A stretch of 64,000 bases of DNA from Nitrososphaeraceae archaeon (lineage in GTDB: Archaea; Thermoproteota; Nitrososphaeria; Nitrososphaerales; Nitrososphaeraceae), in the NCBI GenBank assembly GCA_035250975.1, contig DATFEP010000040.1:1-64000 (forward strand), given 5' to 3'. The notes under the pieces are model-generated. The model was not told the origin of the DNA. It ran no database searches and saw nothing but the letters and a program-made list of their open reading frames with translations. Within the stretch, counting starts at the first letter, position 1, and every line of letters starts with the position of its first letter. Position numbers and translations under genes: made by a program. Shown here in pieces: positions 29,292 through 41,205 of the stretch.

Positions 29292-30509
29292 ATGGTTAAA
29301 GAAAAATGTGTACTTGCCTATTCTGGTGGTCTTGATACTTCAGTATGTATAAAGTATTTACAGTTATTGCATGATCTAGATGTAGTTACTGTTACCGTAA
29401 ACATTGGACAGAATGATGATTTCGAAGAGATAGCAAATAGATCTAAACAAGTAGGTGCGATAAAACATTATAATATTGATGCTTCCTCAGAATTCACCCA
29501 AAATCACATCATTCCATCTATAAAAGCAAACGGATTGTATGAAAATCGATATCCGTTAGCTACAGCCTTAGCAAGACCCTTAATAGCTAAAAAAGCTGTA
29601 GATATAGCATCAAAGGAAAATGCAAAATATATTGCACACGGATGTACCGGCAAAGGTAACGATCAAATAAGATTCGATATTACTATTAGATGCTTAAATC
29701 CTGATCTAAAAATTATTGCTCCTATTCGTGATTTGAATCTGACAAGAGATAAAGAAATACAGTTTGCCAACGAACATAAAATACCTGTAAATACTGAGGT
29801 AAAGAAATATAGCATTGACGAAAATTTATGGGGCAGATCTATTGAAGGTGGCGATCTAGAGGATCTATTAAATGAACCACCAGATGAGTGTTTCAAATAT
29901 GTCAAGTTTGATAATCCGAAAGCCGGATATTTAGAAATTGATTTTGAAGCTGGTATTCCTGTCTGTGTAGAAGGACAAAGAATGAATTTGACAGATTTGA
30001 TAAAGTACATAAATATCAAGGCAGGGTCTTATGGGGTAGGCATAATTGACCATTTGGAAGATAGAGTAATAGGTATCAAATCTAGAGAAATTTATGAATG
30101 TCCAGCTGCTTGTGTCTTGATCGAATCACACCAAGATCTTGAAAAAATGGTTTTAACTTCCCATGAATTACGATTTAAACATTTGGTAGACCAACAATGG
30201 AGTTGGATGACCTACTCAGGACTGTGGCAAGATCCATTGGTAAACGATTTGGATAGGTTTATAGATGCAACGCAAAACAGAGTTACAGGAACAGTAAAGA
30301 TGAGAATGCAAAACGGTTCTATGAGGGTTGTAGGAAGAAGATCAGAATTCTCTTTATACAAAAACGAATTGGCAACTTATTCTTCTGGTTCTATTTTTGA
30401 TCAAACATTAGCGAAGGGTTTTGTTGAATTATGGGGATTACAATCGGTTACTGCAAATTCTATAGCAATTAATTTAAATAAAAAAGAGAATAAAGGAGAA
30501 GAACAATAG
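29292..30509 (+). CDS. argG: Argininosuccinate synthase
   Basis: LAYSGGLDTS, HGCTGKGNDQIRF, SIDENLWGRS, GIKSREIYE. Confidence 0.97.
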   Translation: MVKEKCVLAYSGGLDTSVCIKYLQLLHDLDVVTVTVNIGQNDDFEEIANRSKQVGAIKHYNIDASSEFTQNHIIPSIKANGLYENRYPLATALARPLIAKKAVDIASKENAKYIAHGCTGKGNDQIRFDITIRCLNPDLKIIAPIRDLNLTRDKEIQFANEHKIPVNTEVKKYSIDENLWGRSIEGGDLEDLLNEPPDECFKYVKFDNPKAGYLEIDFEAGIPVCVEGQRMNLTDLIKYINIKAGSYGVGIIDHLEDRVIGIKSREIYECPAACVLIESHQDLEKMVLTSHELRFKHLVDQQWSWMTYSGLWQDPLVNDLDRFIDATQNRVTGTVKMRMQNGSMRVVGRRSEFSLYKNELATYSSGSIFDQTLAKGFVELWGLQSVTANSIAINLNKKENKGEEQ

Positions 30510-30510
30510 A

Positions 30511-30684
30511 ATGAAGAAAGAATGTAGTGATTGTGGAGGAGAAATAAATATTCCAGACGATGCCGTGGTTGGCGAAATTGTTTCATGTCCTGATTGCGGA
30601 GGCGACTTTGAAATATCTTCAAAGTCAAATGGTAACATTGAATTAAAAAATGCAGAATCCGTAGGAGAAGACTGGGGAGAATAA
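30511..30684 (+). CDS. lysW: Amino-group carrier protein LysW/ArgW copy 1 (57 aa, canonical EDWGE end)
   Basis: Manual translation MKKECSDCGGEINIPDDAVVGEIVSCPDCGGDFEISSKSNGNIELKNAESVGEDWGE; below ORF-track cutoff. Confidence 0.95.
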   Translation: MKKECSDCGGEINIPDDAVVGEIVSCPDCGGDFEISSKSNGNIELKNAESVGEDWGE

Positions 30685-30696
30685 ACTTGAAAAAAA

Positions 30697-31551
30697 ATGG
30701 AACTAGCTATTATTTATGATAAACTACGATTTGAAGAAAAAGCTCTCTACGATGATGCAGTAAAGAAAGGAGTTAATACTAGATTACTCGATGTAAAATC
30801 TGTTTCAATAAGTACTGAATTTAATGATAACCAATATTTTGGAGATATTTTTCTACAAAGATGTATCAGTCATTTTAGAGGACTTTATATCACTTCTTGT
30901 TTAGAGTTCTTGGGATATCCGGTAATAAACAAGTATGAAGTAAGCGAAATATGTGGAAATAAATTAAGAACATCCCTAATTTTAGCAAAATCCAATGTAG
31001 CTGCTCCAAAAACATATTTTTGCTTTAACTCAGATTCATTTAAACTTCTGATCGATAAGCTTGGTTATCCAATCGTCTTAAAGCCAATAGTGGGATCTTG
31101 GGGACGTGGTGTTTTTCCGGTAAGAAATGAAGAGATTGCAAATATGTTGATAGAAACACGGGAAGAAAACGATTCTCCATTTTCAAGAATATATTATGTT
31201 CAAGAAATGATAAAGAGACCGCCACGCGATATTCGATGTATCGTGGTAGGAGACCAAATCGTAACTGCAATATATCGTTATTCTGCAGATAATGAATGGA
31301 GAACAAATGTAGCCAGAGGAGGTCATACTGTCCTAGCTCCTTTAACGAATGAGCTTGAGGAGATTGTTCTAAATGCATCTAAAGCAGTTGGCGGGGGAAT
31401 TCTTGGTGTTGATATAATGGAAGATAAAACTCGAGGATTTGTAGTTCATGAAATTAATAGCACTGTCGAATTTCGTGGGGCCTCTCAGGTATCGCAATCT
31501 AATATTGCAGGTTACATGATTGATTATGTTCTTCAGTTTTCAAAAAAATAA
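30697..31551 (+). CDS. argX: ATP-grasp LysW ligase, probably glutamate-specific ArgX
   Basis: KPIVGSWGRG, WRTNVARG, HEINSTVEFRG (EF-x-G, ArgX-like); follows argG and lysW. Confidence 0.8.
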   Translation: MELAIIYDKLRFEEKALYDDAVKKGVNTRLLDVKSVSISTEFNDNQYFGDIFLQRCISHFRGLYITSCLEFLGYPVINKYEVSEICGNKLRTSLILAKSNVAAPKTYFCFNSDSFKLLIDKLGYPIVLKPIVGSWGRGVFPVRNEEIANMLIETREENDSPFSRIYYVQEMIKRPPRDIRCIVVGDQIVTAIYRYSADNEWRTNVARGGHTVLAPLTNELEEIVLNASKAVGGGILGVDIMEDKTRGFVVHEINSTVEFRGASQVSQSNIAGYMIDYVLQFSKK

Positions 31552-31657: not shown

Positions 31658-32710
31658 ATGAAGGTAGGAGTCATAGGAGCATCAGGATATGTTGGTGGCG
31701 AGTTAATTAGACTACTTGTAAGTCATCCAAAAGTGGAGCTTAATATGGTGACTTCTCGACAACAAGCCGGAGAATATGTACATAGAGTTCATCCAAGTCT
31801 TAAAGGATTCATTGATCTCACTTTTTCACCAATGGATATTAAAAAAGTTTTAGACTCATGTGATTTGGTCTTTGTATCAGTTCCACATGGAAGTGCAAAT
31901 CAAATAGTGAAAGATCTCTACGATAGTGATGTTAAAATTATAGACCTTTCTGCTGATTTTAGATTAAAAAATCCTAAAGATTATGTAAAGTGGTATGGAT
32001 GGGAGCATCCATATCCAGAACTTCTTTCCAAGTCTGTATACGGTGTCCCAGAATTTCATCGCGAGGAGATTAAAGCCGCAAAATTGGTTTCGTGTCCAGG
32101 ATGTATGGCAGTCACTTCTTTACTGGCACTTAAACCCTTAATAGAACATGATCTTATTGACACGAATCATATCGTTGTTGATAGTAAAATTGGATCTTCT
32201 GGGGCAGGAGCTCAAGCTAACGCAGGTACTCATCATGCCATGAGATACGGAGTGATTCGACCATATAAACCAGCAAAACATAGGCATACTGGTGAAATAA
32301 TACAAGAATTAAGTCTTATAGCAAAAAAAGAGATCAAGATTAGTATGAGTCCTCATGCCGTAAATCTTGTTCGAGGAATACTAACTACAAATCATACATT
32401 TCTCAACAAGCCCATTGGTGAGTTAGAGCTTTGGAAAGTTTATCGAGAGTTCTACAGTCATGAACCATTTATACGTCTCATAAAAGATAAGAAAGGACTT
32501 TACAAGTTCCCCGATCCGAAATTTTTGATAGGTTCAAACTTTTGTGATATCGGATTTGATATAGATGAAGATAATCAACGTGTTGTTGCACTGTCCGCTT
32601 CTGATAATTTAATGAAAGGTGCCGCAGGATCTGCAATCCAAAATATGAATGTCATGTTTGGATTTGATGAAATGGATGGTCTTAAATACACTCCTCTGAC
32701 TCCAGTATGA
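31658..32710 (+). CDS. lysY: LysW-aminoadipyl/glutamyl-phosphate reductase (LysY/ArgC)
   Basis: GASGYVGGEL, DLSADFR, CPGCM, DNLMKGAAGSAIQNMN. Confidence 0.93.
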   Translation: MKVGVIGASGYVGGELIRLLVSHPKVELNMVTSRQQAGEYVHRVHPSLKGFIDLTFSPMDIKKVLDSCDLVFVSVPHGSANQIVKDLYDSDVKIIDLSADFRLKNPKDYVKWYGWEHPYPELLSKSVYGVPEFHREEIKAAKLVSCPGCMAVTSLLALKPLIEHDLIDTNHIVVDSKIGSSGAGAQANAGTHHAMRYGVIRPYKPAKHRHTGEIIQELSLIAKKEIKISMSPHAVNLVRGILTTNHTFLNKPIGELELWKVYREFYSHEPFIRLIKDKKGLYKFPDPKFLIGSNFCDIGFDIDEDNQRVVALSASDNLMKGAAGSAIQNMNVMFGFDEMDGLKYTPLTPV

Positions 32711-33507
32711 TAGTTATCAAAATAGGTGGAAGTATAGTAGATGGATTACATCCTTCTACTATTTCTGACATCAAAACTCTGCTGGAAAAGGAGAAAATTG
32801 TTCTTGTACATGGCGGAGGAAAAGAAGTCACAAATATTGGAAATAAATTAGGTAAGGAACAAAAGTTTATAGTCTCTCCAGGAGGTGTGAGGAGCAGATT
32901 TACAGACAAAGAGACTGTAGAGATTTATACGATGGTGATGTCTGGTAAAATAAACAAAGCCATTGTCCAAATGTTATTGAATAGCAATATACGTGCAGTA
33001 GGTATTTCTGGAATTGATGGTGCAACCATAAAAGCAGAAAGAAAGAAAAAATTGGTTATTCTGAATGCAAAGGGTAGGAAGATGGCAATTGATGGAGGAT
33101 ATACTGGAAAAATAAAAAATGTAGATCCTGCTCTGATAATGATATTGTTGTCAAATGGTTTTGTTCCTATCATTTCTCCGATCGCTTTGAGTGAGGAAAC
33201 TGAATTTCTAAATGTAGATGGTGATAGGGCTGCGGCCTATGTTGCGGGCAGTCTGAGTGCAGATAAAGTTATTTTTATTACCAATGTAAATGGTTTAATT
33301 TTAGATGATGAGTTGGTGAAAAATATGAATTATAGCGAAGCTAAGGCATCATTGCCCAAAATTGGTCATGGAATGGAAAAGAAAGTTCTTGCTTGTACCG
33401 AAGCTATAGAAATGGGTGTAAAAGAAGCGATTATTGCATCAGGCAATGTAGAAAATCCTATATCTGCAGCTCTTTCTCATGCAAATTGTACGGTGATTAG
33501 CAAATGA
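32707..33507 (+). CDS. lysZ: LysW-aminoadipate/glutamate kinase (LysZ/ArgB)
   Basis: IKIGGS, VHGGG, VSPGGVRSRFTD, GGYTGKI, LNVDGDRAAA. Confidence 0.93.
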   Translation: MIVIKIGGSIVDGLHPSTISDIKTLLEKEKIVLVHGGGKEVTNIGNKLGKEQKFIVSPGGVRSRFTDKETVEIYTMVMSGKINKAIVQMLLNSNIRAVGISGIDGATIKAERKKKLVILNAKGRKMAIDGGYTGKIKNVDPALIMILLSNGFVPIISPIALSEETEFLNVDGDRAAAYVAGSLSADKVIFITNVNGLILDDELVKNMNYSEAKASLPKIGHGMEKKVLACTEAIEMGVKEAIIASGNVENPISAALSHANCTVISK

Positions 33508-34685
33508 ACGGCGAGGATCTTTATGTAGGAAACATCTACCAGAGGTTTCCTGTCAATATATCAAAGGGGAAAGGCGCAACAGTCTGGGATACATCTGGCA
33601 GAGAATATATTGATTGTATGGGAGGATATGGAGTTGCCTTGGTTGGGCATTGTAATGACAGGGTGGTACAGGCAATTAAGGATCAAATAGAAAATTTAAT
33701 AACTTGTCACATGTCCATATATAATGATACACGATTAAAATTTCTGCAAAAAATGTCAGAAATTTCTCCGAAACAACTTTCAAAGTTTTTCTTTAGTAAT
33801 AGCGGAGCAGAATCCGTAGAAGCAGCAATTAAATTTTCGAGAAAGTATACTGGAAAAAGTGGAATAATTTCTATGAATGGTGGATATCATGGAAAAACTT
33901 TCGGGGCTTTATCTGTAACATTCAATGAGAAATATAGAAAATCGTTTCAGCCCCTACTTGAAGGAGTAAAATTTGTTCCACCTCATACTCCATCAGTGAT
34001 CGAGGAGGTATTGGATGAAAGTATCGGAACGGTAATAGTTGAACCAATCCAGGGAGAAACCGGTATAATAGTCCCGGAAGATGGAATTTTACAAGAAATT
34101 AGAGAAATCTGTGACCGTAATAATCTAGTATTAATTTTTGATGAGATCCAAACTGGATTGGGTAGAACAGGAAAAATGTGGGCCGGACAAAATTGGAATA
34201 CTACTCCTGATATTATGTGTCTCGCCAAAGGTATTGCTGGTGGATTGCCTATGGGCTTGACTCTTTGTAAACCTGAAATTCTTGATTCCATAAAAATCGG
34301 CGAGCATTCATCAACCTTTGCTGGTAACCCACTTGCTTGTTCTGCAGGAATAGCTACAATTGATTCTATCGTGGAAGATAAGCTGCTAGAAAATGCTCTT
34401 CACATAGGAAGTTTATTTAAAAATGGATTATTAGAGCTACAAAAAAAACATAAAATAATTCGGGACGTAAGAGGATTAGGATTGATGCTTGCAGTAGAAT
34501 TACGCTTTGACGTAAGAGACGTCTTAATGGATGGAATAAAAGAAGGAGTTCTTATGTTATATTCAGGCAGAAATATAATTCGGTTACTTCCTCCTTTAGT
34601 GTTAGACGAAGTAAAGGTATTAAAAACCTTGGAAATCATGGATAAGATATTGACCAAAGAAGAGGTTAGAAGAAATGTTAAATAA
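33504..34685 (+). CDS. lysJ: LysW-semialdehyde aminotransferase, class III (LysJ/ArgD)
   Basis: NSGAESVEAA, EPIQGE, DEIQTGLGRTG, AKGIAGG, HSSTFAGNPL. Confidence 0.93.
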   Translation: MNGEDLYVGNIYQRFPVNISKGKGATVWDTSGREYIDCMGGYGVALVGHCNDRVVQAIKDQIENLITCHMSIYNDTRLKFLQKMSEISPKQLSKFFFSNSGAESVEAAIKFSRKYTGKSGIISMNGGYHGKTFGALSVTFNEKYRKSFQPLLEGVKFVPPHTPSVIEEVLDESIGTVIVEPIQGETGIIVPEDGILQEIREICDRNNLVLIFDEIQTGLGRTGKMWAGQNWNTTPDIMCLAKGIAGGLPMGLTLCKPEILDSIKIGEHSSTFAGNPLACSAGIATIDSIVEDKLLENALHIGSLFKNGLLELQKKHKIIRDVRGLGLMLAVELRFDVRDVLMDGIKEGVLMLYSGRNIIRLLPPLVLDEVKVLKTLEIMDKILTKEEVRRNVK

Positions 34686-35100
34686 TATTGATTCTTTTGA
34701 TGAACAAATTATTCGGATCCTACAAAATGATTCACGTAAATCATTTGTAGAAATAGCTACTTCTGTAGGACTTTCAGAATCTGCAGTAAGAAGAAGAGTT
34801 AAAAATTTAATAGAGAATCAAATAATAAAAAAATTTACTATTGAAGTAAATCAAAAGGAAGAGACAAGCGCAATAACTCTAATTTCAGTCGCTTCGACGT
34901 CAGATACTTCTACCGTCACCGCTAGATTGTTAAATCTGGAGGGAGTCAAAGTAGTATATGAGATAACTGGACAATATGATATTGCGGCAATAATAAGTGC
35001 TTCTACTATATCAGAAATCAATTCCTACATTGATGATGTAAGAAAAATTGTAGGCGTTTCTGATACCAATACAGTGATTATCCTAAAAACTCTAAAGTAA
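34675..35100 (+). CDS. lysM: Lrp/AsnC-family regulator LysM
   Basis: DSRKSFVEIA..VGLSESAVRRRV, YEITGQYDI; embedded in lys cluster. Confidence 0.85.
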   Translation: MLNNIDSFDEQIIRILQNDSRKSFVEIATSVGLSESAVRRRVKNLIENQIIKKFTIEVNQKEETSAITLISVASTSDTSTVTARLLNLEGVKVVYEITGQYDIAAIISASTISEINSYIDDVRKIVGVSDTNTVIILKTLK

Positions 35101-35215: not shown

Positions 35216-36424
35216 ATGACACTAAAATCGGACGATCCTAACTATTATGCGCATTACTATAATAAAATAGATGAGGGACAAAAAAAAATAAAGGTTCTAG
35301 ATTCGACTCTAAGAGAAGGAGAACAACATCCTGGAGTATCTTTTACTAGCAAACAGCGGATTCAAATTGCATGGATGTTAGATTCTTTTGGAGTTGACCA
35401 AATAGAAATCAGCCCTGTTGTTTCTCAAGATCATTTTGAAGCAACCAAAATCATAATTAAACAAGGATTAAAAGCAGATATTGTTGCCCATGTTAGGGCA
35501 ATAAAATCTGATGTGGATACAGCAATTAAAACTAACGCTGCGTGGGTAGCGACATATATGGGAATTTCTGATATACATTTAAGTGCTAAATTAAAAATTT
35601 CTAGAGAAGAAGCAAAAATGAGAGCAATAGAAGTAGTCGAATATATAAAATCCCATGGATTAAAATCTCGATTTACAATGGAGGATGCGAGTAGAACTGA
35701 ACCCTCATTTCTATTAGAAATGTGCAAAGAAATCAATGGACTGGGCGTTGAAAGAATAAGTATCCCTGATACTGTTGGAATTATGCGACCAAATGGCATG
35801 TATAATTTGGTAAAAATGGTTTATGATAATATTGATAAATCCAAGAGCTCCCTTGATGTTCATTGTCACAATGATGTTGGATTGGCACTAGCAAATGCAT
35901 TGGCTGGATGTGAAGCTGGTGCAGATCAGATTCACACAACAATAGATGGATTTGGGGAAAGAACCGGAATACCTTCTCTCGCTGAAACTTCTATAGCTTT
36001 AAATCTCATTTACAAATCTAGCAATAATTTTAGGTTACATATGTTGAAAGATTTATCAAAAACAATATCTCAATATACAGGTCTCGAGATTCCAGAATCT
36101 ACACCGATCGTAGGTGATAGTGCTTATAAGCACAAAGCGGGAACACATCTTGCAGCCATTCTTCGAAATCCTTCTGCTTATGAGATAATTGAACCCAAAC
36201 TTGTGGGAAATAGAAGAAAAATCGTTTTTGGCGAGCTAGCAGGTAAAAACGGAGCAGCTTACCTTTTATCGTTATTGGGTCTTGAAACAAGCAAACATGA
36301 GGCTGAAACTCTTGCCCGTGGATTAAAGGAACTTAGAATGGGTGACGTTTTAGAATTGTTTCTGGATGAACGTCTAGAAAGAAAAATACTTAATGAAGGA
36401 TCGCCAAATGTGATAAAGGAGTAA
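35216..36424 (+). CDS. Homocitrate synthase (LeuA/DRE-TIM family, no regulatory domain)
   Basis: DSTLREGEQ, EDASR, PDTVG, HCHNDVGLALAN, HKAGTH; lysine-cluster context. Confidence 0.82.
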   Translation: MTLKSDDPNYYAHYYNKIDEGQKKIKVLDSTLREGEQHPGVSFTSKQRIQIAWMLDSFGVDQIEISPVVSQDHFEATKIIIKQGLKADIVAHVRAIKSDVDTAIKTNAAWVATYMGISDIHLSAKLKISREEAKMRAIEVVEYIKSHGLKSRFTMEDASRTEPSFLLEMCKEINGLGVERISIPDTVGIMRPNGMYNLVKMVYDNIDKSKSSLDVHCHNDVGLALANALAGCEAGADQIHTTIDGFGERTGIPSLAETSIALNLIYKSSNNFRLHMLKDLSKTISQYTGLEIPESTPIVGDSAYKHKAGTHLAAILRNPSAYEIIEPKLVGNRRKIVFGELAGKNGAAYLLSLLGLETSKHEAETLARGLKELRMGDVLELFLDERLERKILNEGSPNVIKE

Positions 36425-36430
36425 AAGAAT

Positions 36431-36598
36431 ATGGTCAAATGTAAAGAATGTGATGCAGAAATAAGAATCCCCGATGATTCAATTGAAGGTGAAATAGTTG
36501 CCTGTCCAGATTGTGGTTCAAGCTATGAACTAGTCAAGGGAGCAGATGGATTCAGTATTAAGCCATCTCAAGTAGTTGGCGAGGATTGGGGACAGTGA
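36431..36598 (+). CDS. lysW: Amino-group carrier protein LysW copy 2 (55 aa, variant EDWGQ end)
   Basis: Manual translation MVKCKECDAEIRIPDDSIEGEIVACPDCGSSYELVKGADGFSIKPSQVVGEDWGQ; last codons CAG TGA at 36593-36598. Confidence 0.93.
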   Translation: MVKCKECDAEIRIPDDSIEGEIVACPDCGSSYELVKGADGFSIKPSQVVGEDWGQ

Positions 36599-37455
36599 CT
36601 GAGAGAAAGAACAGAACCTCCCTCACTCTTCTTTATGATAATATACGCTGGGAAGAAAAAGCTATCTACGAGTCTGCTAGAAAAAGAGGAATTGACATAA
36701 CGAATGTTGATTGTAAAGATCTAATTTTGGAACTAGACGGTCCTAGCTATTCTAATAAAATAATTATACAAAGATGTGTTAGTTATTTCAAAAGTCTTCA
36801 TTCTACTGCTGCACTGGAAGGTTTGGGAGCTAGTGTTATTAATCCACTTAATACTTCTATTGTTTGTGGTAATAAATTATTTACACATATGAAATTGAAA
36901 AACGCTGGAATAAAAACTCCAAAAGTCATAACAACTTTTTCATATGAAGCCGCACTTTCTGCTCTTGATATTTTTGGATATCCGACCATAATTAAACCCA
37001 CAATTGGAAGTTGGGGAAGATTAATTGCGTTACTAAAAGACAAAGATGCAGCGAAGGCTGTAATTGAAGATAGACAACATATGTTTCCACTTTATCAAAT
37101 ATATTATTTTGAGGAATTTGTTGATAGACCGCCTAGGGATATAAGAGCAATAGTAATAGGCGATACAGTAGTGGCTGCTATATATCGTTATTCGGAAAAT
37201 AGCGAATGGAAAACCAATATGGCTTTAGGAGGCAGAGCAGAATCATGTCCAATTACAAAAGAGCTCGAAGATATTTGTATAAAATCTACACAAGCAGTAA
37301 ATGGAAAAATAGTTGGAGTAGATCTTATGGAAAGTTCACGAGATGGTTTATTGGTTCACGAAGTTAATAATACAACAGAGTTTAAAAATACTGTCAGAGT
37401 TACAGGAATACCAATTCAAGATATGATAGTAGATTACTCTTTGCAATACAACTAA
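36595..37455 (+). CDS. lysX: Alpha-aminoadipate--LysW ligase LysX
   Basis: KPTIGSWGRL, WKTNMALGG, HEVNNTTEFKN (EFKN, LysX-type); likely GTG start overlapping the lysW stop (GTGA). Confidence 0.88.
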   Translation: MTERKNRTSLTLLYDNIRWEEKAIYESARKRGIDITNVDCKDLILELDGPSYSNKIIIQRCVSYFKSLHSTAALEGLGASVINPLNTSIVCGNKLFTHMKLKNAGIKTPKVITTFSYEAALSALDIFGYPTIIKPTIGSWGRLIALLKDKDAAKAVIEDRQHMFPLYQIYYFEEFVDRPPRDIRAIVIGDTVVAAIYRYSENSEWKTNMALGGRAESCPITKELEDICIKSTQAVNGKIVGVDLMESSRDGLLVHEVNNTTEFKNTVRVTGIPIQDMIVDYSLQYN

Positions 37456-37469
37456 TATTATTATTAAAA

Positions 37470-38585
37470 TTGGTCTCACCTAATTATGCTGTGGAACTCT
37501 TAAAAAGATCAATAGAGCTCTATACACCCTCAAGATCTGAATCTCAATTAGCTAATATGCTTAAGGAAAAATGTATTGATGATCTGGGATTTGAACAGGC
37601 TCAGATAGATAGTGTAGGAAATGTTATAGCTACAAAGGGAACAGGATACCCTAGGATTCTACTTTGTGGACATATGGATACAGTTCCAAATAAAGTGCCT
37701 ATCAGAATAGAAGATGGTTTATTGTATGGTCGTGGTTCCTCAGATGCTAAAGCTCCTTTAATCGCCATGCTCTTAGCAGCTTCGGAATTTCCTAAACAAA
37801 ACGGAACAATTATTTTCGCAGGCGTAGTAGATGAAGAAGGAAGCGCTACTGGTAGCAAACAACTTGTTAAAAATAACATAGAGGTTGATTATGCAATTTT
37901 TGGTGAACCGAGTGGCATCGAGAACATAACGATATCGTATAAAGGTAGGTTAGCAATTAAACTAATATGCGACGTACTCCAAAGTGCTCATGCAAGTGCC
38001 CCTTGGCTAGCAAAAAATTCGATTGAAGAATCTTATGAGTTTTGGCAGGCCATAAAAAAGGAAATTAACAAAACAAACAATAGTGAAAAAAAAACTAGTT
38101 CAATAAGTTGCAGTCTGACGGAAATAACTGGAGGGTCGAGTCATAATGTTACTCCTCAAAAATGCAAGCTTACCATGGACATACGAATTCCTACTACAAA
38201 TACATGCCAACAAGTATTAGACATGATCGATAAAGTAATTTCTAATATTTCTAGGCAAAAAGGAATAAAATCCAATTATATAATCGAAGATTTTACAGAT
38301 CCATTTGAAGCAGATCATTCATCTCCTTTGGTAAGGTCTCTAGTTCTTGCAATACTGGATGTCTGTAAAAAACGACCGAATTTATTACGAAAAACTGGTA
38401 CTGGTGACATGAATATTATTGGTAATGCGCTTAAAATACCAGTAGTTACTTATGGACCGGGAGATCCTCATTCTTCCCATAGTGTAGACGAGCATGTTGA
38501 TATCCAAGAATATATTACCGGAATAGAGGTCTTTAAAAGATCGCTTTTTCATATGTCTAGGTTACACAATTATCAAAGAAAATAA
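37470..38585 (+). CDS. lysK: LysW-lysine/ornithine hydrolase (M20 family, LysK)
   Basis: GHMDTVP, GRGSSDAKAP, VDEEG, GEPS, KTGTGDMN, YGPGD...H..DEH. Confidence 0.9.
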   Translation: MVSPNYAVELLKRSIELYTPSRSESQLANMLKEKCIDDLGFEQAQIDSVGNVIATKGTGYPRILLCGHMDTVPNKVPIRIEDGLLYGRGSSDAKAPLIAMLLAASEFPKQNGTIIFAGVVDEEGSATGSKQLVKNNIEVDYAIFGEPSGIENITISYKGRLAIKLICDVLQSAHASAPWLAKNSIEESYEFWQAIKKEINKTNNSEKKTSSISCSLTEITGGSSHNVTPQKCKLTMDIRIPTTNTCQQVLDMIDKVISNISRQKGIKSNYIIEDFTDPFEADHSSPLVRSLVLAILDVCKKRPNLLRKTGTGDMNIIGNALKIPVVTYGPGDPHSSHSVDEHVDIQEYITGIEVFKRSLFHMSRLHNYQRK

Positions 38586-38639: not shown

Positions 38640-39737
38640 ATGTTATACTTTGTTGGAATAGGAATAGACGGTTGTAACAGTATAAGTTTAAACGCTATAG
38701 AAATTATGAAAGGTTGTCAGAAAATTTATATTGAAAGATTCACAAGTTACATAAGTAAAAAAGAAATAGAAAAACTAGCTCAACTTATAGACCCCGAGAA
38801 GAAAAAACAAATTAATTTAGTTCAACGTTGGTTTATTGAGGATGGAAAAGAGATACTTTCCAAATCTAAAAATGCAATTGTTGCAATAGTAACTTATGGT
38901 GACCCATTTATGGCAACAACATTGAATGAATTACTGATAAGAGCTAAAAGAAATTTAATTGAAACACGTATTATTCACGGTTCTTCTGGACTTTTTTCTT
39001 TCATCGGGGAAAGTGGCCTTCATAACTATAAATTCGGTCGTACTACTACAATAATGTCAGATCCTCAATCTGCAATAAGTGTCTATAATATTATTTATGA
39101 GAATCTAAAAGTAGGTAATCATACCTTGATATTAACTGAATATAACAATAATGATGATAGAGATTTTTTCTTTCTAAATCCTCAATTAGCTCTTGAAATG
39201 TTAGTGGAAGTTGAAAAAGATCTAAAATATGGAATTATATCAGAAGATACTTTTATTATAGTTGGATCAAGAATCGGAACTGATTCTCAAAAAATTCAAT
39301 CAGGAAAGATTCACTCTTTTGAGAATATGGATTTTGGTAAAGGACCTCATTCTATAATCATTCCTGGACACCTTCACTTTACTGAAATTGATTCTATAAC
39401 ATCACTTTATCAAAATTTTGACAATCCATCTGATAATACAAAACTATTCCAACACCTTGCCGTATCAATGGTTAACAGATATCTCCCAAAAGCTAAAGAA
39501 GCGCTAAAAACAATGAAGTCATTTCTAGATAAAGAAAATAGTATCTCCACTAATAACAATAAACCTGATAATAAGGGTATGTACAATGTACTAGAAAACG
39601 CTGAATATTACTTGCTTGATTCAGAGAGATTTCTTAACCAAAATAAATATGAATTAGCCGTCTTAAGCATTGGTTATGCAGAAGGATTAATAGATTCATT
39701 ACGATTTCAGAAAAATATCAATCCATGGTTATCTTAA
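38640..39737 (+). CDS. dph5: Diphthine synthase fused to a C-terminal DUF357-like domain
   Basis: LYFVGIG, GDPFMATT, YKFGRTTT, PHSIIIPG.LHFTE; C-terminal AEYYLLDSERFL...YAEGLIDSLR. Confidence 0.9.
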   Translation: MLYFVGIGIDGCNSISLNAIEIMKGCQKIYIERFTSYISKKEIEKLAQLIDPEKKKQINLVQRWFIEDGKEILSKSKNAIVAIVTYGDPFMATTLNELLIRAKRNLIETRIIHGSSGLFSFIGESGLHNYKFGRTTTIMSDPQSAISVYNIIYENLKVGNHTLILTEYNNNDDRDFFFLNPQLALEMLVEVEKDLKYGIISEDTFIIVGSRIGTDSQKIQSGKIHSFENMDFGKGPHSIIIPGHLHFTEIDSITSLYQNFDNPSDNTKLFQHLAVSMVNRYLPKAKEALKTMKSFLDKENSISTNNNKPDNKGMYNVLENAEYYLLDSERFLNQNKYELAVLSIGYAEGLIDSLRFQKNINPWLS

Positions 39738-39834: not shown

Positions 39835-41205
39835 TTGAGCAAAAATAATCAAGCTTTTAAAATACCAGATGAACTATTACTTTTTCTTAAAAATGAAACT
39901 TATTCGTTATTAATTAAAGGTGAACCTGGTATCGGTAAAACAGCATTATGTCTTGCTATTTTAAAGGAATTGAATATTAAAAATAATTTCTTTTACATAT
40001 CTACTAGAGTTTCTCCAAATAAATTATTTTATTACTTTAAATGGGTAAATAAATACCTTAAAATCAAATCTTCCAATCTACATAATAAATTTTCTAAAAC
40101 TGAAACTACGTTTGGACCATTCTTCGAAGATGCTCGACTGGATGAACCAGAATCTCTATTTGAACGAATTACAAATCAACTTATGGACGTACGTGCTCCC
40201 TTAATTATTGTCGATAGTTGGGATGGTGTGGCATCTTTTATGGATAGAGAATCCAGATTAAACAACGAACGAGTATTACAGACTTGGTTAGAAAGAGCTG
40301 GGGGTCGTCTAATATTAGTCGGAGAAGGAACAGCCACATCCACATTGGATTATTTAGTTGATGGGGTCGTGACATTAAGGAACATAAAGTATTACGGACG
40401 CGATCTCAGAGAAATATCTTTAAATAAGTTAAGAGGAGTAAATGTAATAAAAAATTCTTATTTATTCACGTTACATGAAGGTATGTTTAAGACATTTGAA
40501 TCTTATAGCGATCCCTGTTCACCGTCTATCCAAATTTCTGAATCTGATTTAGATAAATCCGCTAATTTGTCTACTGCGAAGAAATTTAGTTCTGGATATG
40601 AGATTATAGACAGAGATTTTAATGGTGGTTTTTTAGATAAGTCTGTAGTCCTGATTGAATATGATCCTAGAATTGGAATCAATGCCGCTATTATTTTTTT
40701 ATCACAATTTATTAGTGAATCGATGAAAAAATTATACTCCATATTTTTAAACTATAGTTTGAAAAATTCATATAGTTTATTATTAAATCAGATAATTAAA
40801 AATCATAATGATGATTTGATCAGATATATTAATTTCTTTAAAAAATCTAGAAATAATTCTGAAAATGATCAATATGTTGCAAAAAATATGCAGTCATATG
40901 ATTTTATTGATGAGATAGAGAAATTTAAATCGCAATCTCCTGTATTTAGTATTATAGATATAGACAGGGATCAAAAAATAGACCCTGCAGTATTAGAAAG
41001 TCTAAAGAATCATATGAATATCACATTTATGATAAAGACGCTTGATGTTTCAGATAAATATTATGGTCTAATATTTCCTGATTACCATTTTCAACTTCTC
41101 TTAATTAATGGTGTACTTTGTATTAATATACTTCATCCTTTATCAAAAATGTATGTCCTAGAGCTAAACAAAGAAAAAAATAATGTTAATTTAATTGAAA
41201 TTTGA
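39835..41205 (+). CDS. KaiC/RAD55/GvpD-like ATPase (active N-terminal domain, degenerate second domain)
   Basis: LLIKGEPGIGKT, IVDSWD, LDYLVDGVVTL, KLRG; second repeat SSGYEIID..FNGGF lacks Walker A. Confidence 0.8.
   Translation: MSKNNQAFKIPDELLLFLKNETYSLLIKGEPGIGKTALCLAILKELNIKNNFFYISTRVSPNKLFYYFKWVNKYLKIKSSNLHNKFSKTETTFGPFFEDARLDEPESLFERITNQLMDVRAPLIIVDSWDGVASFMDRESRLNNERVLQTWLERAGGRLILVGEGTATSTLDYLVDGVVTLRNIKYYGRDLREISLNKLRGVNVIKNSYLFTLHEGMFKTFESYSDPCSPSIQISESDLDKSANLSTAKKFSSGYEIIDRDFNGGFLDKSVVLIEYDPRIGINAAIIFLSQFISESMKKLYSIFLNYSLKNSYSLLLNQIIKNHNDDLIRYINFFKKSRNNSENDQYVAKNMQSYDFIDEIEKFKSQSPVFSIIDIDRDQKIDPAVLESLKNHMNITFMIKTLDVSDKYYGLIFPDYHFQLLLINGVLCINILHPLSKMYVLELNKEKNNVNLIEI

Follow-up and report, generated by a model that had tools for sequence, protein, structure and literature searches.

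Glutamine (Gln) is the encoded C-terminal residue of most LysW amino-group carrier proteins in a whole archaeal order of ammonia oxidisers. This end is inherited and widespread, not one genome's quirk, and it is compatible with a role as sole carrier. It is found in lysW2, one of two carrier genes on a 64,000-nucleotide stretch of DNA from a Nitrososphaeraceae archaeon, the whole of which is called the window here. In work on Thermus, the bond to the substrate is reportedly formed on the gamma-carboxyl of the terminal glutamate (Glu) of LysW. According to PMC10433800, the residue to which the substrate is attached is the C-terminal Glu of the EDWGE motif, and every published account found treats this Glu as indispensable. 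A preliminary description, made from the window's letters and reading-frame translations, had argued that the lysW2 product could not be loaded as encoded by the published chemistry, and in this it was right. As Gln is without a side-chain carboxylate, the encoded residue has either to be converted or to be joined to the substrate in some other way, which means that activation or attachment must involve chemistry not yet described.

The lysW2 gene (36431..36598, + strand) codes for a 55 aa zinc-ribbon protein (MVKCKEC...CPDC...VVGEDWGQ). In profile searches it scored above the cut-offs of both the archaeal carrier family NF041070 (carrier_LysW_Arch; 83.8 bits, cut-off 75) and PF21344 (47.3 bits, cut-off 27). 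The zinc-ribbon cysteines lie in CKEC (residues 4-7) and CPDC (residues 26-29), and the gene adjoins a GSWGR-motif LysX/ArgX ligase and LysK. The tail retains EDWG, but it closes with Gln where the EDWGE motif that defines LysW/ArgW has Glu. The terminal CAG codon (36593..36595, + strand) is followed directly by the TGA stop (36596-36598), and its G is base 1 of the GTG start of lysX (36595-36597), giving a GTGA overlap between the lysW2 stop and the lysX start. The second carrier gene, lysW1 (30511..30684, + strand; 57 aa; NF041070, 94 bits), ends in GEDWGE. These are the only two LysW genes in the window's genome (91 contigs, 94.6% complete). The open reading frames and the NF041070 match thus bear out what the preliminary description had read from the letters, namely an intact lysW2 with two CxxC pairs, EDWG and a terminal CAG, beside a lysW1 ending in EDWGE.

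The CAG codon stands up in independent sequence data. Contigs from two DNA runs of different studies (X2, X3) cover 36593-36595 with no other letter there, and contigs of two RNA libraries (X15, X16) also span these positions with CAG unchanged; contigs speak for presence, and those of the RNA libraries are a weak hint at transcription that cannot prove it. An error of sequencing or assembly is ruled out by the independent runs, by the terminal Gln common to the 30/30 loci collected first, and by the close homologues described below. The overlap with lysX does not force the codon either: as had been pointed out from the window alone, it would equally allow GAG, and GAGTGA is indeed the end of lysW2 in 21/77 genes of the window's family. 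In one of the RNA libraries (X16), the word depth was ~212 on the lysW2 contig (36338-36592) and 15.5 on the lysX contig (36641-37600), which hints at a higher abundance of the small carrier mRNA than of the lysX mRNA, contig depth being a measure that cannot rank genes.

Both carriers belong to one gene cluster. Its first gene, upstream of lysW1, is argG-like (29292..30509, + strand); it is named from its translation and its conserved position. An argX-like ligase gene adjoins lysW1 (30697..31551, + strand; TIGR02144, 287.6 bits), its signature I-I-V-G-A being ArgX-like at 3/5 positions. Then come lysY, lysZ and lysJ (31658..34685, + strand), which are present as single copies in the locus, are common to both branches and keep their order in the family loci; the Lrp-type regulator gene lysM (34675..35100, + strand; NF040947, 172.8 bits, slightly under the cut-off of 180); and, directly upstream of lysW2, a homocitrate synthase-type gene (HCS; 35216..36424, + strand; TIGR02146, 366.8 bits, under the cut-off of 413.55). 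The ligase gene that overlaps lysW2 is lysX2 (36595..37455, + strand), with its GTG start in the GTGA overlap (alternative TTG at 36586) and a TIGR02144 score of 319.7 bits (cut-off 275.6). It is followed by lysK (37470..38585, + strand), an M20 metallohydrolase gene whose product is the candidate deamidase (TIGR01902, 273.6 bits, cut-off 163.1; PF01546 and PF07687); the lysK match to NF003367 (282.9 bits) is under the cut-off of 363.

Alignment to PDB entries 3vpd and 5k2m places both the GSWGR motif and the RDIR arginine in lysX2, whose signature positions read I-I-M-N-T. The enzyme is a member of the RimK family (TIGR00768, alpha-L-glutamate ligases, 277.6 bits), with MptN and CofF as the next matches. 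The residues named in PMC12998189 include Asn258-Ser259 of Thermus LysX, and Val203 and Gly258 in glutamate-directed variants. When these positions are mapped by alignment, the ligase adjoining lysW2 has Asn-Thr at the Asn258-Ser259 positions, and the ligase adjoining lysW1 agrees with the glutamate-directed variants in having Val at the position of Val203 and Gly at that of Gly258. These residues are consistent, in the window, with lysW2 serving a lysine branch and lysW1 an arginine one. Downstream of lysK lie a gene for a tetrapyrrole-methylase-type domain fused to DUF357 (38640-39737), presumably diphthine-synthase-like, and one for a GvpD/KaiC-type P-loop ATPase (39835-41205); no tie of either gene to the carrier system was seen.

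The distribution of the two ends was followed in loci from 80 genomes (18 genera) of the window's family, out of 151 searched, and in 18 genomes (11 genera) of a sister family of the same order. The initial family search found a match in 143/151 genomes, a tally that includes two flagged as unpublished, from which no sequence was taken. In the sister family the assignment is uniform, lysW1 ending in Glu and lysW2 in Gln in 18/18 genomes each. In the window's family the end of lysW2 is Gln in 56/77 genomes and Glu in 21/77 (the gene closes with CAGTGA in 47/77), and that of lysW1 is Gln in 42/47 and Glu in 5/47. Where the two copies are taken as a pair (lysW1, lysW2), the window's own type, Glu with Gln, occurs in 4 genomes, Gln with Gln in 22, Gln with Glu in 17, and Glu with Glu in 1. 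The 17 genomes of genera g5 and g16 show the reverse of the window, with Glu in the copy adjoining lysX and Gln in the copy adjoining argX. The idea that Gln is peculiar to the lysX-adjoining copy therefore has to be given up, since the arrangement is reversed in these two genera and both copies carry Gln in 22 genomes; what stands from it is that the C-terminal alignment does place Gln in this copy throughout the sister family and in most of the window's, Glu being found in the remainder.

The same two residues recur outside the collected loci. Of 72 close homologues in a large protein collection, Gln is the end in 62 and Glu in 6, and 4 have unrelated or truncated tails; such sharing of the Gln, like that in the sister family, goes beyond chance. 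One metagenomic homologue (P0013) has a duplicated tail, EDWGQWDWGQ, which is possibly an assembly artefact or a true tandem duplication of the last five codons. Cluster representatives at 50% identity with a LysW-type tail (n=104) comprise 86 Glu, 18 Gln and 0 other ends, and a second count of tails (n=95) gave 57 Gln and 38 Glu. In LysW-type tails the last position is thus Glu or Gln only, in all genome loci as well, and since no other residue is used, the delta-carbonyl is indicated as the functional group. In other families of Thermoproteota (40 genomes), the carriers end in Glu in 37 and in Gln in 3, the Gln cases being sole carriers; 2 of the 3 families concerned also have a sampled relative with a Glu end. 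Gln-ended LysW is not limited to ammonia oxidisers. The suggestion that deamidation serves as a gate, sensitive to ammonia in an ammonia oxidiser, gained no support from these sole carriers in 3/40 genomes or from the 18/104 representatives.

Conservation of the terminal codon has to be read together with that of the codons around it. In the sister family it is CAG in 18/18 lysW2 genes and GAR in 18/18 lysW1 genes, and the adjoining Gly codon has all four third bases. The Glu five codons before the end is GAG in lysW2 (18/18 in the sister family, 68/77 in the window's family) and GAA in lysW1 (18/18 and 45/47); the corresponding stretches of the window are 36578-36598 and 30664-30684. The terminal Gln of lysW1 is written with both CAA and CAG within genera. 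This paralogue-specific synonymous fixation shows a nucleotide-level constraint on the tail, which probably comes from signals needed to translate the overlapping ligase gene, e.g. a Shine-Dalgarno-like GAGGA upstream of the GTG. The invariance of the terminal Gln looks like selection for Gln, and would suit a persisting Gln better than a transient cap; because the tail is constrained at the nucleotide level, the invariance of the codon is not taken as clean evidence for such selection.

Genomes with a single carrier are the most informative about function. In seven genomes of four genera (g2, g9, g13, g17), lysW1 is missing from its place in the cluster between argG and the next gene. Three of these are closed, 99%-complete genomes of g2, and they contain exactly one LysW by the family HMM, with the tail EDWGQ, together with two LysX-family ligases that occupy the argX and the lysX positions. 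In the four others (g9, g13, g17) the cluster is without lysW1. All sole carriers found so far in the window's family end in Gln (7/7). Two ligases beside a single Gln-ended LysW in closed genomes, and the lack of any ArgJ in a search of 5 genomes, argue that this protein must, on its gene content, be a working carrier and not a decoy. A decoy or inhibitor role for lysW2, which the preliminary description had listed among its alternatives, is ruled out by the genomes whose only LysW ends in Gln.

Several further arrangements were seen. A lysA-family match (fold-type III decarboxylase), below the cut-off, is present in all 5 genomes searched for it (at most 236.8 bits, against 297.9; G000:C7:2998-3621, G001, G032, G043, G111), and may be a diaminopimelate decarboxylase or some different decarboxylase. 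In genus g9, the cluster at loci L043 and L044 (genomes G008 and G111) has neither lysW1 nor argX. The whole of G111 (87% complete) yields just one LysX-family match, so that both pathways may run there on one ligase and a single Gln-ended carrier. In genome G006 (genus g7), lysW1 (L041, 10042-10230, - strand) is without any zinc-ribbon cysteine and has the tail EEWGQ; it looks like a decaying gene. This copy, with the four genera that have no lysW1, suggests that the second carrier is dispensable in the window's family. Genera g4 (L038/L148, G003) and g14 (L053 in G014; L143-L147 in other genomes) have a split cluster, in which argG-lysW1-argX(-lysY) is either on a different contig from HCS-lysW2-lysX-lysK or at a long distance from it.

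The switch between Glu and Gln leaves no trace in the rest of the system as far as it was followed. The gene order argG-[lysW1]-argX-lysY-lysZ-lysJ-lysM-HCS-lysW2-lysX-lysK does not differ between Glu and Gln genomes. When the state of the adjoining lysW2 is mapped onto a LysX tree (75 genomes), 4 changes (g5, g16, g15, g11) are needed, of which well-supported branches force 1 only. No column of the LysX alignment has a state that is common to the four Glu genera and missing from the Gln genera; the variable positions 117-118 come nearest, setting apart 3/4 of the Glu genera with no common residue. No third LysX paralogue that might be an analogue of Dop, the Pup deamidase, was present in the genomes searched, TIGR02144 giving 2 matches in G001, G032, G043 and G052 and 1 in G111. 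A stand-alone EgtC-like hydrolase (TIGR03442) was likewise not found in G000, G001, G032, G405, G161, G317, G306 or G183, where the profile matched only weakly and over part of its length, within ORFs of 485-619 aa; in G000, the genome of the window, asparagine synthase gives the best of these matches. An M20 LysK is present throughout: it scores above the cut-off in the three Gln-ended cases outside the order as well, and these too are without an EgtC-like gene. Neither an added gene nor a paralogue or substitution of LysX was thus found to accompany the switch. Repeated switches between Glu and Gln without any co-change imply, therefore, that the capacity to use Gln resides in the standard enzymes.

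The mechanism favoured here, with about even confidence, is that a pathway enzyme, most likely LysK, would convert Gln to Glu once in the life of each carrier molecule. lysW2 would be translated as the Gln-ended pro-form of a functional carrier, and the gamma-carboxamide of its terminal Gln would become a gamma-carboxylate before or at the first loading. LysK is put forward as the converting agent on the grounds that it is the usual hydrolase of amides at the same gamma-carbonyl (LysW-gamma-Lys/Orn). Afterwards the Glu form would enter the ordinary cycle, in which LysX would load aminoadipate, LysZ/Y/J would modify it, and LysK would free lysine and restore Glu. The amide would cost one slow turnover per carrier molecule and, because the cost would stop there, Glu and Gln could be interchanged in evolution without any other change. 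If the linkage is to the gamma-carbonyl, Gln would last only until the first release by LysK. Two points weigh on the other side. The alpha-carboxylate of the leaving amino acid is what M20 enzymes usually hold on to, and ammonia has no such group, so LysK may perform poorly. It is also hard to see why a transient Gln should have stayed fixed for so long. The preliminary description had arrived at LysK by analogy with Pup and Dop; the enzyme is a reasonable candidate and the parallel is apt (PMC8599861), the deamidation itself being what we infer.

Gln might instead be the working end and not a transient cap, through either alpha-carboxyl ligation or a direct, ATP-sparing side-chain transamidation by LysX/ArgX across ammonia-oxidising archaea, a view that we regard as doubtful. 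If LysX and ArgX activated the alpha-carboxyl in the manner of RimK, Gln would persist, the substrate would be carried as a peptide extension, and LysK would act as a carboxypeptidase. The RimK family, to which LysX belongs, has precedent for alpha-carboxyl activation; an arginine that contacts the C-terminal residue is common to RimK and LysX (PMC10375531) and is retained in lysX2. Such a linkage would account for the long fixation of Gln, as in the whole of the sister family (18/18), and for the fact that the 7/7 sole carriers have it. However, LysZ, LysY, LysJ and LysK would have to accept a linkage two carbons shorter, and the same single-copy enzymes would have to handle Glu- and Gln-ended carriers in one cell. 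The sporadic Glu-to-Gln switches in other Thermoproteota would need a pathway that was alpha-linking beforehand, a strict restriction of the end to Glu or Gln would not be needed if the side chain is a bystander, and no LysX substitution follows the switch. An alpha-linkage is for these reasons judged unlikely.

It is quite unlikely, in our estimate, that LysX uses the amide itself, with ADP and phosphate or with ATP, through an acyl-phosphate-type intermediate that would be hydrolysed or transferred directly to aminoadipate with release of ammonia. Glutamine synthetase provides a precedent in its classic ADP/phosphate-dependent gamma-glutamyl transfer reaction, but we know of no ATP-grasp enzyme that uses an amide in this way. 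The Gln side chain would occupy the place of the Glu side chain, and no added gene would be needed, which is consistent with the finding of no paralogue, substitution or hydrolase; that no LysX feature separates Gln-partnered from Glu-partnered enzymes speaks neither for nor against it. Dop, a homologue of a ligase, deamidates the Gln-ended form of Pup (PupQ) by phosphate chemistry in a ligase-type site, the proposal being that the PupQ amide oxygen attacks ATP (PMC8599861), but LysX is unrelated to Dop and PafA. Conversion by an unrelated cellular amidase or by slow spontaneous deamidation is very unlikely. One conversion per carrier lifetime would suffice and the cluster shows no gene dedicated to it, yet such a route would be fragile for a sole, essential carrier and no stand-alone EgtC-like hydrolase was found in the genomes searched. 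Spontaneous deamidation of Gln is, moreover, slow. That lysW2 is a decoy or inhibitor, or CAG an error, has next to no likelihood: beyond the missing carboxylate nothing speaks for it, and against it stand the independent runs, the counts of Gln in the two families and the closed genomes in which this is the only LysW.

The Gln-ended LysW is the majority state in a whole order, is found beside an ordinary LysK, and occurs as the sole carrier, in genomes where it would serve lysine and arginine alike, so that either the pathway contains a hidden activation step or its linkage chemistry is different. One-time deamidation, if true, would bring a parallel of Pup and Dop into a biosynthetic carrier system. 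A persisting Gln, if true, would mean that lysine and arginine synthesis in highly abundant archaea runs on a linkage unlike that of Thermus, Sulfolobus and Thermococcus. Either outcome would bear on annotation, on metabolic models of globally important nitrifiers and on the engineering of amino-group-carrier pathways. No description of a Gln-ended LysW or of EDWGQ was found in the literature searched, the scope of which excluded subscription journals and supplements.

The closest known systems are those of LysW/ArgW in Thermus thermophilus, Sulfolobus and Thermococcus kodakarensis, which share with the present one the zinc ribbon, the acidic EDWG tail, the GSWGR LysX, the M20 LysK, and the gene set and order. 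They differ in that the substrate-bearing Glu (PMC10433800) is encoded here as Gln, and in that most of these archaea have two carriers, with Glu and Gln interchangeable between the paralogues. RimK, MptN and CofF are of the same ATP-grasp family as LysX, act on the C-terminal Glx of an acidic tail and have the common arginine; they activate the alpha-carboxyl and add glutamate, which for LysX in these archaea is a candidate reading. The nearest parallel for the residue itself is Pup of actinobacteria, also a small protein, which is joined to an amine through the side chain of its C-terminal Glu and which ends in Gln or Glu by lineage (GGQ/GGE; PMC8599861). According to the same source, some actinobacteria encode PupQ, and Dop both cleaves the Pup isopeptide and deamidates the Pup Gln. 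LysW resembles a Pup-like pro-form in that lineages with Gln have close relatives with Glu and no other residue is used, and it differs in that no dedicated deamidase paralogous to the ligase, as Dop is, was found. The proteins and folds of the Pup/Dop/PafA system are unrelated to those of the carrier system, and, unlike Dop, which is paralogous to its ligase, the candidate here is a metallohydrolase. Finally, the LysW carrier is recycled instead of being degraded.
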